64,000 nucleotides of DNA from an uncultured Verrucomicrobiota bacterium (GCA_964589935.1 CAZPVD010000001.1:352818-416817); one strand, 5' to 3'; positions 48,827 through 60,587 are shown, counted from the first letter of the stretch. The notes: a model not told the origin generated them from the letters alone. A program made the numbers and translations.

Positions 48827-48888
48827 GTGCGGGCCTTTCGCATCAATTCATTTGAGCCGCCCCGCGCCGGCTGTTACTTCTGTCGCGC

Positions 48889-56544: not shown

Positions 56545-56622
56545 GGTAGGGACGCGCTGCGGTGCGTCCTTGCTTTCTCCGCAGTCGGCACCGTGATGGA
56601 CGCGGAGCACCGCGTCCCTACC
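56545..56622. repeat. REP-like inverted repeat in the alaS leader
   Basis: Arms GGTAGGGACGCGCTGCGGTGCGTCC (56545-56569) and GGACGCGGAGCACCGCGTCCCTACC (56598-56622). The outer 12 bp are perfectly complementary. The repeat ends 11 nt before the alaS ATG. Confidence 0.6.
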
Positions 56623-56633
56623 GGACACATCGC

Positions 56634-59600
56634 ATGATGACCAGCACGCAAATCCGCCAGTCGTTCCTCGACTTCTTCAAGTCGAAGCAGCACACCATCG
56701 TCCCCTCGTCCAGCCTCATGCCGGACAGCCCGAACCTGCTCTTCACCAACGCCGGCATGAACCAGTTCGTGCCCATCTTCCTCAACGAGACCAAGTGCCC
56801 CTACTCGCCCGGCCGCGCCGCCGACACGCAAAAGTGCATCCGCGCCGGCGGCAAGCACAACGACCTCGATGACGTCGGCCTCGACACCTACCACCACACG
56901 TTCTTCGAGATGCTCGGCAACTGGTCCTTCGGCGACTACTTCAAGCGCGAGGCCATCAGTTGGGCGTGGGAGCTGGTCATCGAAGTCTGGAAGTTCCCGC
57001 CGCAGCGCCTCTACGCGACGGTCTATTGCCCCGACAAAACCAAGGGCGACCCCAGCGAGTTCGATCAGGAGGCGTGGAACTTCTGGGCCGAGAAATTCCG
57101 CTCCGTCGGCCTCGACCCCGCCGTCCACATCGTCAACGGCAACAAGAAAGACAACTTCTGGATGATGGGCGACACCGGCCCGTGCGGCCCGTGCTCCGAA
57201 CTCCACGTGGACCTCACGCCCGCCGGCGACACCCGCGGCCTGCTGGTCAACAAAGGCACCGCCGAGTGCATCGAGATTTGGAACCTCGTCTTCATCCAGT
57301 TCAACGCGAACGCCGACGGCACCTTCAGCCCGCTCCCGGCCAAGCATGTGGACACCGGCATGGGCTTCGAGCGCGTGACTAGCATCATCCAAGGCACCAA
57401 GAACTTCACCGACTTCGCCAACGCGAAGATTTCCAACTACGAGACCGACATCTTCCGCCCCATTTTCGACGAGCTGGGGCAGATGAGCGGGAAGAAATAC
57501 GGCAGCACGCTGCCGCAGGGGAGCGCGACCGTCCCGGTCGCCCCGGTCGGCGTCCCGCCGACCGGTCCCACGCGCACGACGAATCCGATTGCGCCATCCA
57601 CTTCCTACGCGCCCGAGTCCGCTGCGCGGGACGCGCAGCAGGGCGACCGGGACGGTCGCGCTCCCCAGGCGATAGCGCCCCAATCGCAAGTTCCCCAAGT
57701 CACTTATTACAAACGCCGCCTTCCGCACTTCGAGCGTCCGTGGGCCAAATACATGGTCAGCTTCACGACGCGCGAGCGGAAGCAGCTCTCCGAGGCGGCG
57801 CGCGCGGTCGTGCTCAAGAGCCTGCTCTTCGGCCACGAGCAGCGTCGCTATCAGATGTATGCCGCGTGTGTCATGCCCGACCACGTTCACTTTCTGTTTG
57901 AGCCGCAAATCAAGGAGCAGGACAAGGACGGCCAGCCCGTGTTCTGGCCGCTCGCCGAGTTGATGCATTCGATCAAGTCTTTCACCGCGCACGAAATCAA
58001 CAAGCTGGAGAAGACCACGGGCCAGGTGTGGGAGAACGAATCGTTCGACCGGATGATTCGCGGCGACGCCGACCTCGAAGAAAAATTCCACTACATCTGT
58101 CGCAACCCATGGGACTCCGGCGTCGCTCCCCTCACCGAGAACTACCGCTGGCTCTGGACACCCGACGCCATCGCCGAGGAGAAGCAAAGTCACGAAACAA
58201 CCAAGAGCGCGACCGTTCTAGAAAAGGGGAGCGCGACCGTCCCGGTCGCTCCGGTCGGCGTCCCGCCGACCGATTCTTCGCGCGGGGGCGCGGCGAGATT
58301 GTCAACAGTTCTGACTTCCCACGCGCCAGGGGCTGTTGCGCGGGACGCGCAACAGAGCGACCGGGACGGTCGCGCTCCCCAAACGTCCGCTCCCCATGCG
58401 GAGCAAATCCAGATCGACATCGCCTTTCGCGTCATCGGCGACCATATCCGCACGTTGAGCTTCGCCATCGCGGATGGCATCCAGCCGGGCAACACCGACC
58501 GCAACTACGTCCTGCGCCGCATCCTGCGCCGCGCGGTGCGCTACGGCCGCACGCTCGGCTTCCACGAGCCGTTTTTTTACAAGCTCGTGGACGTGCTCGC
58601 CGCGACGATGGGCGATGTCTTCCCCGAAATCCGCACCCGCCAGCAGCACGTTAAGGATGTGCTCAAGCTGGAGGAGGAGAGTTTTAACAAGACGTTGGAT
58701 GCTGGAATCGCTCTGTTTGAGGAAGTGATTCGTCTGGAGAAGACGTTGAGAGAATTAGTCGAAAATTTGGTCCCACACATCGAGAAGATTGAAATTGTGG
58801 CGGCGAAGAGCTTTGGAACATCCGAGGCGAGCCTACAATCGTTGAACGACATCTACACAGATGTCCAAGTTGTAGCCGGAGAAGTTAGAGGATTGAACCG
58901 CGATCTCTGGTTCAAAATGGCGGAAAAGGAAGAGCGGAGTTTAGTCGAAGCTGCACAGCAGTTGCTAAACATCGTCAACACCCTCTTCGATGAGTCAGTT
59001 CCTGTTTCTGTTCGGGAGGCATTTGCGAATGAGGCGGAAACTCACATCGCTTCTATCCGCACAGGGCTAGTGACCATCGCAAAAAGACCGAATGAGTTTC
59101 GCAGCAGTGCGGCATTCGTTCTCTACGACACCTACGGCTTCCCCCTCGACCTCACCGAGTTGATGGCCCGCGAACGTGGCCTGGCCGTGGACGTGGCCGG
59201 CTTCAACGCCTTGATGGAGGAGCAAAAGGCCCGCGCCCGTGCCGCGCAGAAGAAGACCGTCATCGAGCTGTCCCAAATCGAGACCAAGACGCCCACGCGC
59301 TTCCTCGGCTACGACGCGCTGGAGACGCCCGCGCGCGTGCTCGAAGTCGTCGGCCTCAAGGACAAGACCGCCGTGGTGCTCGACACCTCCACCTGCTACG
59401 CCGAGATGGGCGGCCAGCTCGGCGACACGGGCGAAATCCTCCACGTCCCGGTAGCAGCCGACGTGAGTCGGCTCAAACTCTCAGATGGAGCGGACTTACG
59501 TCCGCTGCTACGCGTCACGAACACGCAGAAGTCCGGCAACACCTGGCTGCATTTCGTAGAAGGCGACGAGCTTCCCGCCACGGGAGACACCGTGGTTCTC

Positions 59601-60587
59601 CGGGTGAACAAATCGCGCCGCGATGCGATCCAGCGCCACCACACCGTCACGCACCTGTTGCACTGGGCCTTGCACGAGGTCGTGGGCCAGGAAGCCTCGC
59701 AGAAAGGCTCCTTCGTCGGGCCGGACAAGCTGACCTTCGACTTCAACAGCGCCGCGCTCACGCCCGCGCAGGTCGCGGACATCGAGAAGCTCGTCAACGA
59801 GCGCATCGTCGAAAACGCCGGTGTCTCGTGGACCGAAGTCCCGCACGCCGACGTGAAGTCGCGCAAGGACGTGATGCAGTTCTTCGGCGACAAATACGGC
59901 GACACCGTGCGCGTCGTGCAGATCGGCGGCCACGCCACGAAGCTCGACGGCTACAGCATGGAACTCTGCGGCGGCACGCACACGCGCGCGACCGGCGAGA
60001 TCGGCCTCTTCCGCATCGTCGGCGAGAACGCGATTGCCGCCGGCGTGCGCCGCATCGAAGCCGTCGCCGGCCTCACCGCCTTCGACGCGATGCGCCTGGA
60101 CCGCGAGTTGATCCGCACCGTGGCCGGCAAGGTGAATTCCCCCATCCACGAACTGGAAAAGAAGATCGAGTTGGTGCTCGCGCACCAGAAGGAGCTGGAG
60201 AAGGCGCTCAAGACCTCCATCGCGCGCAACGCCGCGCAGACCGCCGCGTGGTTGCTCACGCGCGTGACGGAAGTGAACGGCATCCAGCTCATCACGCAGG
60301 GTTTCCCGGACGGCGACACGGAATATCTGCAAGCCGTGGTGGACGCGCTCAAGAGCCATTTCAAGGGCGTCATCGTCCTCGGCGGCGCGGCAAATGGCGC
60401 GGTGGCGCTGGTCGCGGCCGTTTCGCCGGAGTTCACTGCGAAGATTCAAGCGGGCAAAATCATCCAGCAGATCGCGCCCATCGTCGGCGGCAAGGGCGGC
60501 GGCAAGCCCGACAACGCCCGCGGCGGCGGCAAGGACGCCAGCAAGCTCGACGCAGCGCTGGCAAAGGTGAAGGAGTTGGTCGTCTGA
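56634..60587 (+). CDS. alaS: alanine--tRNA ligase carrying three in-frame insertions (1317 aa versus ~880 canonical)
   Basis: Start MMTSTQIRQSFLDFFKSKQHTIVPSSSL at 56634 (the track ORF starts at 56562). AlaRS motifs FTNAGMNQF, HHTFFEMLGNWSFGDYFK, DTGMGFERV, AFRVIGDHIRT, LYDTYGFPLDLT, editing-site HTVTHLLHWAL...CGGTH, and C-terminal GGKGGGKPDNARGGG. Confidence 0.9.
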   Translation: MMTSTQIRQSFLDFFKSKQHTIVPSSSLMPDSPNLLFTNAGMNQFVPIFLNETKCPYSPGRAADTQKCIRAGGKHNDLDDVGLDTYHHTFFEMLGNWSFGDYFKREAISWAWELVIEVWKFPPQRLYATVYCPDKTKGDPSEFDQEAWNFWAEKFRSVGLDPAVHIVNGNKKDNFWMMGDTGPCGPCSELHVDLTPAGDTRGLLVNKGTAECIEIWNLVFIQFNANADGTFSPLPAKHVDTGMGFERVTSIIQGTKNFTDFANAKISNYETDIFRPIFDELGQMSGKKYGSTLPQGSATVPVAPVGVPPTGPTRTTNPIAPSTSYAPESAARDAQQGDRDGRAPQAIAPQSQVPQVTYYKRRLPHFERPWAKYMVSFTTRERKQLSEAARAVVLKSLLFGHEQRRYQMYAACVMPDHVHFLFEPQIKEQDKDGQPVFWPLAELMHSIKSFTAHEINKLEKTTGQVWENESFDRMIRGDADLEEKFHYICRNPWDSGVAPLTENYRWLWTPDAIAEEKQSHETTKSATVLEKGSATVPVAPVGVPPTDSSRGGAARLSTVLTSHAPGAVARDAQQSDRDGRAPQTSAPHAEQIQIDIAFRVIGDHIRTLSFAIADGIQPGNTDRNYVLRRILRRAVRYGRTLGFHEPFFYKLVDVLAATMGDVFPEIRTRQQHVKDVLKLEEESFNKTLDAGIALFEEVIRLEKTLRELVENLVPHIEKIEIVAAKSFGTSEASLQSLNDIYTDVQVVAGEVRGLNRDLWFKMAEKEERSLVEAAQQLLNIVNTLFDESVPVSVREAFANEAETHIASIRTGLVTIAKRPNEFRSSAAFVLYDTYGFPLDLTELMARERGLAVDVAGFNALMEEQKARARAAQKKTVIELSQIETKTPTRFLGYDALETPARVLEVVGLKDKTAVVLDTSTCYAEMGGQLGDTGEILHVPVAADVSRLKLSDGADLRPLLRVTNTQKSGNTWLHFVEGDELPATGDTVVLRVNKSRRDAIQRHHTVTHLLHWALHEVVGQEASQKGSFVGPDKLTFDFNSAALTPAQVADIEKLVNERIVENAGVSWTEVPHADVKSRKDVMQFFGDKYGDTVRVVQIGGHATKLDGYSMELCGGTHTRATGEIGLFRIVGENAIAAGVRRIEAVAGLTAFDAMRLDRELIRTVAGKVNSPIHELEKKIELVLAHQKELEKALKTSIARNAAQTAAWLLTRVTEVNGIQLITQGFPDGDTEYLQAVVDALKSHFKGVIVLGGAANGAVALVAAVSPEFTAKIQAGKIIQQIAPIVGGKGGGKPDNARGGGKDASKLDAALAKVKELVV
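57518..57666 (+). repeat. left REPIN-like hairpin pair
   Basis: Arm 57518-57558 is GGGGAGCGCGACCGTCCCGGTCGCCCCGGTCGGCGTCCCGC. Arm 57626-57666 is its imperfect reverse complement (first 26 nt perfect, ~35/41 overall). The loop is 67 nt. Confidence 0.8.
58226..58380 (+). repeat. right REPIN-like hairpin pair (direct copy of the left one)
   Basis: Arms 58226-58266 and 58340-58380 are 40/41 and 39/41 identical to the left-hand arms, in the same orientation. The loop is 73 nt. Confidence 0.8.
58731..59106 (+). other. ~125-codon in-frame insertion of low-GC DNA in the alaS tRNA-recognition (helical) domain
   Basis: It lies between conserved ...LDAGIALFEEVI and AAFVLYDTYGFPLDLT, where canonical AlaRS has only ~15-25 residues. 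Hand-counted GC is 201/420 (47.9%) for 58681-59100 versus 58-68% in the four flanking 60-nt lines. Confidence 0.7.
59451..59511. repeat. 61-bp nested palindrome (REPIN-like doublet) in-frame within alaS
   Basis: GTAGCAGCCGACGTGAGTCGGCTC...GAGCGGACTTACGTCCGCTGCTAC. The halves are 21/24 complementary and each half is itself a hairpin (AGCCGAC-GTGA-GTCGGCT and AGCGGAC-TTAC-GTCCGCT). It encodes ~VAADVSRLKLSDGADLRPLL. Confidence 0.7.

Follow-up and report, generated by a model that had tools for sequence, protein, structure and literature searches.

How does a mobile palindrome become part of the coding sequence of an essential enzyme, and what keeps it there? The question is raised by the 64,000-nucleotide stretch of DNA analyzed here (henceforth, the window), which comes from an uncultured Verrucomicrobiota bacterium (GCA_964589935.1, CAZPVD010000001.1:352818-416817) and in which alaS, the gene for alanyl-tRNA synthetase (AlaRS), includes at 59451-59511 an element of 61 bp that reads directly as GTAGCAGCCGACGTGAGTCGGCTC-AAACTCTCAGATG-GAGCGGACTTACGTCCGCTGCTAC. 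The element consists of two inverted 24-nt stem-loops, each tagged by GTAG, that are 13 nt apart and are read in the alaS frame, encoding the peptide VAADVSRLKLSDGADLRPLL. A preliminary description of this locus took the element for a palindromic doublet of the repetitive extragenic palindromic (REP) type that had transposed into alaS independently in this genome. We find that it is indeed such a doublet, from a dispersed family, and that its independent transposition is probably wrong. The explanation that, as a whole, we consider probable is that an old intragenic GTAG-tagged REP doublet was imported by recombination, is tolerated by the enzyme as a loop, and is maintained as a hairpin, not as a peptide.

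A REP doublet of a dispersed family

The two 24-nt arms are reverse-complementary at 21 of 24 positions, and two of the three mismatches are the center pair of the 7-bp stems, C.G in the left arm and G.C in the right one, so that each arm is a perfect hairpin by itself, whereas a single long hairpin keeps two internal mismatches. The sequence, the complementarity of the arms, and the 7-bp hairpins are all as originally quoted. GTAG stands at the outer end of both units (59451-59454 and, on the minus strand, 59511-59508). The left arm is an exact match to the family motif, and the right arm matches it as well; both are also picked up by a scan for GTAG plus a hairpin, and the pairs of both covary among orthologues. 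An inverted-repeat search reports the palindrome as 29-nt arms, 83% complementary, with 3 nt between them.

The predicted RNA fold of an 81-nt stretch with the element reaches -44.3 kcal/mol, compared with -24.8 +/- 3.1 for shuffled sequences (z = -6.3; 0 of 200 shuffles as stable), and the expected count of the motif in shuffles of the window is 0.00. A native loop of the enzyme that happens to contain a chance palindrome was rejected on the grounds of this fold, the dispersed copies of the family, and the DNA comparison with relatives. No terminator-like site was detected at the element in a terminator scan, a promoter scan was likewise negative, and the best matches in an Rfam scan were sub-threshold microRNA models (22 bits vs gathering scores of 79-80); an intrinsic terminator or a known structured RNA was ruled out on this basis.

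The evidence for a family comes from a scan with the pattern GTAGCAGCSGACGTNAGTCSGCT, one genome per species, which matched at least 120 stretches outside alaS, nearly all of them in metagenome-assembled genomes (MAGs) of Verrucomicrobiota and often on several (up to at least three) contigs of the same MAG; none of these listed stretches is alaS. Most dispersed copies are built like the window element, with 10-40 nt of spacer separating a GTAG-tagged C-type arm (GCCGAC/GTCGGC) from an inverted G-type arm (GCGGAC/GTCCGC). Both arms are exact in 39 dispersed copies among the matches listed, and most single-arm matches have a slightly diverged inverted mate. At the dispersed copies, GTAG was demanded by the scan pattern; it is present too in variant arms outside that pattern, and among the orthologues, L124 alone differs (GCAG). 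The alaS copy shows no target-site duplication, its flanks CCG/GTAG...CTAC/GCG being without a direct repeat, and no consistent duplication was found at the dispersed copies among the matches listed. One MAG, TGS_VER2, holds the alaS copy (L205) plus a dispersed copy (L077). By these comparisons, the element is a REP doublet, similar to the REP doublets forming hairpins (REPINs) and to bacterial interspersed mosaic elements (BIMEs), of a family dispersed in Verrucomicrobiota. The preliminary description had named the absence of the motif elsewhere in the genome as the observation that would speak against an inserted repeat; what we found instead are dispersed copies in other Verrucomicrobiota MAGs. 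Sequence comparison further bears out that this is not the family of the doublets flanking the REP-associated tyrosine transposase (RAYT) nested in the same gene.

Residence in coding sequences is frequent in this family. A stop-free frame of at least 60 codons on both sides surrounds 50 of the 133 dispersed elements among the matches listed, and at least 17 of the 133 are in frame within open reading frames (ORFs) that have Pfam domains flanking or spanning the element. These genes encode PrpD, 5-enolpyruvylshikimate-3-phosphate synthase (AroA), UvrA (two), MurG, MutS (three, in two MAGs), HsdM, and PurL and, further, a DUF3516 helicase, an E1 dehydrogenase, LarC, an M28 peptidase, a xanthine dehydrogenase, and a radical S-adenosylmethionine enzyme. 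Repair genes can carry multiple in-frame copies: there are two in a UvrA-like ORF of L011, and MutS of L103 and L080 has a copy at the same site, with a second one in L103.

Several further observations concern the organization of the repeats. Tandem arrays of the GTAGCAGC family in L082 (4070-4223) and L113 (6-157), both with a period of ~65 nt, and in L093 (132-502; 174 nt) look like BIME clusters and are mistakable for arrays of clustered regularly interspaced short palindromic repeats (CRISPR). A larger inverted repeat, whose ends resemble CCATGAACC ... GGTTCATGG, encloses many of the dispersed doublets (L029, L032, L043, L051, L056, L077, L091, and L093), which suggests composite elements. 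Some repeat-carrying contigs are titled as MAGs of Bifidobacterium, Bifidobacteriaceae, or Klebsiella (L022, L029, L041, L042, L046, L051, L063, and L071); these are probably mislabelled or contaminated bins.

A mosaic patch in alaS

The comparison with the alaS genes of relatives that the preliminary description had called for was made with the best 120 homologues of this AlaRS, from Verrucomicrobiota. In type A (81 of the 120), the insert is lacking and the sequence runs GDTGE-LTGSGQLW-RVVNTQKSG; in type B (39 of the 120), 17-27 residues, of the same or diverged sequence, occupy the same codon position. The commonest type-B peptide is VAADVSRL..(4-6 residues)..GADSRPLL, and the diverged ones include VAADVSRRTLSDGADSRPRL, VAADGSQPQTSVNMAADSRQPL, and VGAEVTRRASGSGADSAFSRRQL; P0058, with a 10-residue remnant (FLAATGRAPL), is placed among the 81 type-A proteins by length. 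Relative to most AlaRS, the element is, as had been claimed, an insertion that preserves the frame, and the eight proteins closest to this AlaRS among the 120 are all insert-less. On a weakly resolved neighbor-joining (NJ) tree of AlaRS, the insert is clustered, far from monophyletic (20 parsimony steps vs 34 for random labels), and a single origin is not borne out on this weak tree. A metagenome scan for orthologue DNA found the insert at the site in 4 of 80 loci, the rest being mostly insert-less, and four further insert-bearing loci were added through an exact-protein look-up. Judging from these sequences, the insertion is old and common to many related alaS genes.

The alaS sequence around the element changes its affinities abruptly. 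Identity to the nearest relative, L121 (GCA_009921305.1), is 96.5% over 59181-59435, drops to 68% over 59512-59625, and returns to 95.3% over 59626-59990. At the protein level, a sliding window gives 95-99% identity to eight type-A proteins for the C-terminal half of AlaRS outside the insert, on both sides of it, whereas the segment from GE/ILHVP to approximately VVLRVNKSRR is 53-72% identical to those type-A proteins and 80-90% identical to type-B proteins. Blastn matches to the type-A loci L155, L188, and L149 stop at 59434-59438 and restart at 59604-59625. The element itself is identical to that of L123 in 60 of 61 positions, and the loop base T (ACTTACGT) is common to the window element, L123, and L124. 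Hence, ~130 nt of alaS next to the element are of the insert-bearing type as well, a switch that transposition could not produce, and import by recombination is therefore favored. From the sequence comparison, recombinational import appears more likely than local transposition: a REP doublet would have entered alaS long ago in an insert-bearing lineage, not by transposition in this genome, and, in the simplest account, a type-A gene would have acquired a type-B tract of ~190 bp through homologous recombination.

The competing history is transposition into alaS in this genome or a very recent ancestor, out of an abundant resident REP family of which in-frame copies survive, with alaS as a hotspot. 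The family is clearly mobile or dispersed in related genomes, where it is frequently in frame in genes, and different REP subfamilies occupy the alaS site depending on the lineage (L206 matches the subfamily of L001, L028, and L035; L127 has a 37-nt spacer), which could reflect repeated targeting. The only GTAG-plus-hairpin sequences that a scan of the window detected are those of this element and of the doublet in the leader (56545-56622), all at alaS, in keeping with a hotspot. However, a second family copy is absent from the 64-kb window, both in a search for the exact motif that allowed up to 3 mismatches and in a fuzzy search at up to 6 mismatches in 24 (a single doubtful match, with 5 mismatches, is at 48854); the insert-bearing character of the neighboring ~130 nt is left without explanation; and the element, the 13-nt spacer, and the loop base T are held in common with L123 and L124, genes that elsewhere are only 75-80% identical. 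With the site shared by 39 of 120 homologues, a mosaic patch, and no second copy in the window, we regard transposition in this genome as decidedly unlikely. As for the choice between a hotspot and an abundant family that had been offered along with it, abundance does hold at the level of the clade, where copies are often in frame, but the GTAG hairpins of the window are all at alaS; neither alone fits.

A patch this short (~190 bp), with conserved alaS motifs at its borders, could also be an assembly artefact, in which an insert-less contig was joined by short shared words to co-occurring insert-bearing reads, the real genome perhaps being without the element; indeed, most database relatives are MAGs from mixed communities. 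Yet only ~12 bases at the left junction are conserved between the types, which is short for assembler words, the reading frame is intact across both junctions, and the natural patchiness of the insert in the AlaRS tree, weak as that tree is, suggests that such exchanges occur in nature. A chimeric join is conceivable if the window is a metagenome assembly; we consider it very improbable.

A predicted surface loop

In the ORF listing, the element is in frame inside an uninterrupted alaS ORF of 1341 codons (56562-60587), and the DNA homology of relatives to alaS begins at 56633. The homologues carry PF01411, PF07973, and PF02272 and are alanyl-tRNA synthetases of Verrucomicrobiota/Limisphaerales. 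Measured against the DNA of the nearest relative, L121, the gene has gained a net 51 nt (17 codons) here. The beta-barrel concerned lies after the aminoacylation half of the enzyme and precedes the editing domain; relative to the AlaRS of P. horikoshii (2zze), the insert is an alignment gap between two strands of this barrel, where archaeal structures are gapped. AlphaFold modelling with 40 homologues gave a predicted local distance difference test (pLDDT) score below 50 and no secondary structure for residues 119-133, which lie within the insert and form a loop between strands 111-115 and 137-145, the rest of the barrel being mostly confident. A full-length AlaRS results only if the element is read as a tolerated surface loop; the frame is open, with 51 nt gained on balance. 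From the model, we infer that translation of the element adds a disordered loop at the surface, lengthening a beta-hairpin by 17 residues, and that the enzyme would tolerate such a loop in the turn of the hairpin. The tryptic peptide LSDGADLRPLLR is a predicted AlaRS peptide that would mark the translation of the element. Translational bypass or excision of the element was dropped as a candidate in view of a length (61 nt) that is not divisible by 3, an open frame, and a net gain of 17 codons.

The segment 58706-59120 of alaS (LVENLVPHIEKIEIVAAKSFGTSEAS...) has no blastn match in L121, which has ~390 nt there; in many MAGs, gene callers split alaS at this segment, hence the many "hypothetical" proteins of ~520 aa that are the C-terminal part of AlaRS. 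At ~60180-60360 (residues 361-420 of the translation of window positions 59100-60584), identity to the 95-99% type-A relatives drops to 43-56% and is equally low to every other homologue; by sequence, this may be another exchanged or fast-evolving segment. In a second barrel loop just past WLHF[IV]E (at ~59560 of the window), many orthologues have other translated repeat families (P0020, P0028, P0010, P0057, P0061, P0078, and others), for example GARPSRS...GGTPALP, which is the RAYT-flanking family in another reading frame, and also NRKSQIVNAS / ISNPQSQIAD.

Conservation of the stems

Conservation was assessed in five canonical type-B orthologues (L123, L124, L125, L205, and L208), the window being excluded. 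Among these, the flanking alaS sequence diverges by 12-25% and third codon positions by 28-49%, whereas the 48 arm bases differ at 0-2 positions. Counted as variable columns, the arms have 2 of 48, and the corresponding figures are 214 of 600 for the flanking sequence and 142 of 200 (71%) for third positions (Fisher p = 7e-7); the 13-nt spacer, compared among the five orthologues and the window copy, varies at 8 of 13 positions. Variants in other orthologues are fully compensated: in L206, the pair at the base of both stems is C.G instead of A.T, the two arms of L207 both read GGCTGAC/GTCAGCC, and L127 combines GGCGGAC/GTCCGCC and GGCGAAC/GTTCGCC with a 37-nt spacer, and in all three, the peptides change radically (for example, VSRL to GSQP). 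In an alignment of 11 sequences, 92.9% of the cells pair under a two-hairpin model and six pairs have double-sided changes, values reached by 0 of 500 shuffles; a single long hairpin leaves 84.8% paired. The L206 type is also dispersed, as a non-alaS doublet, in L001, L028, and L035, and therefore, at least some of the variation follows REP subfamilies and is not in-place drift; no dispersed copies were found near the L127, L207, and L206 variants within their loci of 8-22 kb, and of the three types, that of L206 alone turned up elsewhere. The same contrast is seen in mutS: copies at an orthologous site have identical right arms and a scrambled spacer, and their left arms differ in the loop and the GTAG tag, not in the stems.

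Conceivably, the double hairpin has been co-opted as a functional part of alaS under purifying selection, be it a ribosome pause before the editing domain, an exonuclease block, or a protein-binding site. Such a role would fit stems that diverge 9-fold less than the essential host gene and 18-fold less than third positions in it, a drifting spacer, the compensated stem changes across orthologues, and the very stable predicted structure (-44.3 kcal/mol). The stems, however, are equally kept at no fewer than 120 unrelated loci and at the mutS site, so that the constraint belongs to the family, not to alaS; moreover, the insert is lacking in the closest relatives as well as in two thirds of the clade, the palindrome has decayed in several lineages, and the element has neither a terminator-like tail nor an Rfam family match. 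Co-option in alaS therefore strikes us as unlikely, and an alaS-specific role of the hairpin is less likely than recognition or re-templating at the level of the family. Under the explanation of an old REP doublet imported together with its flanks, the nucleic-acid hairpin would persist, with stems intact or pair-compensated, while the spacer and the encoded residues drift; the constraint could be the recognition of GTAG plus a stem-loop by a REP-binding protein (for example, the cognate RAYT) or re-templating from other members of the family. As far as the sequences go, the constraint is on the nucleic acid and common to the REP family, without being universal.

Besides the chimeric join considered above, several points weigh against this explanation. 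The donor appears to be unsampled, because the 114 nt of the patch beside the element are only 80-82% identical to the sampled insert-bearing loci, and the direction of the transfer is a matter of parsimony only, all nearest neighbors being of type A. The count of resident copies covers the 64-kb window of the source genome alone, and the translation of the loop is deduced from the open frame. The palindrome has decayed in L126, L128, and P0058 with its 10-residue remnant, so that the constraint does not extend to all copies. Finally, unlike typical REPIN-RAYT systems (Bertels and Rainey 2011; PMC3116915), no single-copy RAYT flanked by REPs of the element's own family was found: the RAYT in this alaS is flanked by doublets of an unrelated family, and a tblastn search with it recovered none beside dispersed copies in the 120 listed loci, a weak test, with at most 8 kb sampled per locus.

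It is possible, although we would not call it likely, that selection or re-templating acts on the nucleotides of intragenic REP stems, in alaS and equally in mutS, and preserves them in lineages with near-saturated synonymous sites, the peptide being free to change. If true, REP copies in essential genes would be living members of the population rather than fossils, either bound and maintained through RAYT or exapted as hairpins; alaS, with an in-frame RAYT at two alternative sites and a leader GTAG doublet, would be a long-term REP-RAYT nest; and the insert-bearing beta-barrel segment would be a cassette moving between lineages by recombination. The REP locked in alaS is a natural experiment that sets apart the forces to which REPs are subject: the host gene provides an orthology anchor and, in its third codon positions, a built-in neutral clock, and the contrast between frozen stems and a drifting spacer and peptide bears on why REP and REPIN sequences persist and stay uniform in the long term. 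Because the copy apparently moved with flanking gene sequence, the presence or absence of an insert cannot be read as transposition without a check of the flanks. The insertion itself is ordinary; what has some value is the cassette-like transfer and the strong conservation of stems that lie in an essential gene.

Comparison with known systems

Like GTAG-tagged REPs and REPINs, the element has 7-bp stems, 4-nt loops, and GTAG at the outer end; in most GTAG REP families, stems are 6-9 bp. With REPINs and BIMEs it shares two inverted units, a variable spacer, two arm subtypes, many dispersed copies (in other Verrucomicrobiota MAGs), tandem clusters (L082 and L113), and the lack of target-site duplication. 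The two arm subtypes within the doublet have a parallel in E. coli, in the Y and Z REPs of BIMEs. The resemblance to MITEs (miniature inverted-repeat transposable elements) derived from DDE-transposase insertion sequences consists in being short, non-autonomous, and present in many copies, with inverted ends and an occasional in-frame location in genes. Unlike DDE MITEs, the element is without target-site duplication, and each of its ends is a GTAG-tagged hairpin; such ends are the signature of elements of Y1 (HUH) transposases, and therefore, it is not to be identified as a DDE MITE.

In-frame palindromes are also familiar from the Rickettsia palindromic elements (RPEs), which Ogata et al. 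reportedly described in 2000 as lying in frame in many unrelated, often essential, genes. The alaS element resembles RPEs in behavior only, as an in-frame palindrome that would be translated as an extra surface segment with the function of the protein kept. RPEs are ~100-150 bp long, fall into families RPE-1 to RPE-8, and occur in the reduced genomes of the intracellular Rickettsia, whereas the alaS element is 61 bp long, GTAG-tagged, and unrelated in sequence. The RPEs are CGTC-tagged, not GTAG-tagged (PMC3733652).

The closest precedent is the work of Di Nocera, De Gregorio and Rocco (2013; PMC3733652), who described GTAG REP dimers inside genes of Verrucomicrobia, so that the in-frame alaS element is of an already known kind. 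According to that work, GTAG-tagged REPs are present in the Planctomycetes-Verrucomicrobia-Chlamydiae (PVC) superphylum, and the verrucomicrobium Opitutus terrae has the most intragenic ones; the intragenic dimers encode 20-30 residues, both uvrA genes have double inserts, tRNA synthetase genes are among the targets in other species, and recB of two Xanthomonas species has different REPs at about the same site (PMC3733652). The double uvrA inserts of O. terrae are echoed by the two copies in the UvrA-like ORF of L011. The family differs from those of O. terrae, with peptides VGPALAAG and GTGVPPV: GTAGCAGC is absent from the supplement of the same paper. The alaS element also departs from classical extragenic REPs by lying inside a gene, although intragenic members are documented (PMC3733652). 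Three features go beyond that paper and were not found there, namely, a copy shared by many orthologues, an apparent recombination with the flanks, and stems much more conserved than the host gene.

RAYT and the leader doublet

The features of alaS are collected in Table 1.

Table 1. Coordinates in the window of the alaS gene, its REP element, and associated features
Feature	Position	Strand	Remarks
alaS host gene	56634..60587	+	probable start ATG 56634; mechanical ORF from GTG 56562
Leader GTAG doublet, another family (GTAGGGACGCG...)	56545-56622		just upstream of the probable alaS start 56634
RAYT (Y1 transposase) ORF	57515-58415		nested in frame in alaS
Mosaic patch with element, type-B beta-barrel segment	59436..59627	+	~190 bp in otherwise type-A-like alaS
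Left REP arm (C-type)	59451..59474	+	encodes VAADVSRL; GTAG tag 59451-59454; stem 59456-59462 with 59467-59473; loop GTGA 59463-59466
Spacer AAACTCTCAGATG, 13 nt	59475..59487	+	encodes most of KLSD
Right REP arm (G-type), inverted	59488..59511	-	minus-strand reading GTAGCAGCGGACGTAAGTCCGCTC; encodes GADLRPLL; plus strand: stem 59489-59495 with 59500-59506, loop TTAC

The possibility that a RAYT lies between paired elements ~1 kb apart was rejected: such intervals contain ORFs for UvrA, MutS, an oxidoreductase, and similar proteins, with no transposases among them. Many related metagenome contigs also carry a nested RAYT, which is 57-86% identical to that of the window. It is found in L149 and L188 at the site seen in the window, in L155 and L140 at another site, and also in L175, L184, L153, L186, and L165; L121 is without it and has ~40 nt at the corresponding position. 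Two AlaRS proteins, P0039 and P0042, contain PF01797. The two sites are on opposite sides of the block homologous to 58416-58717: RAYT precedes this block in the window, L188, and L149 and follows it in L155 and L140.

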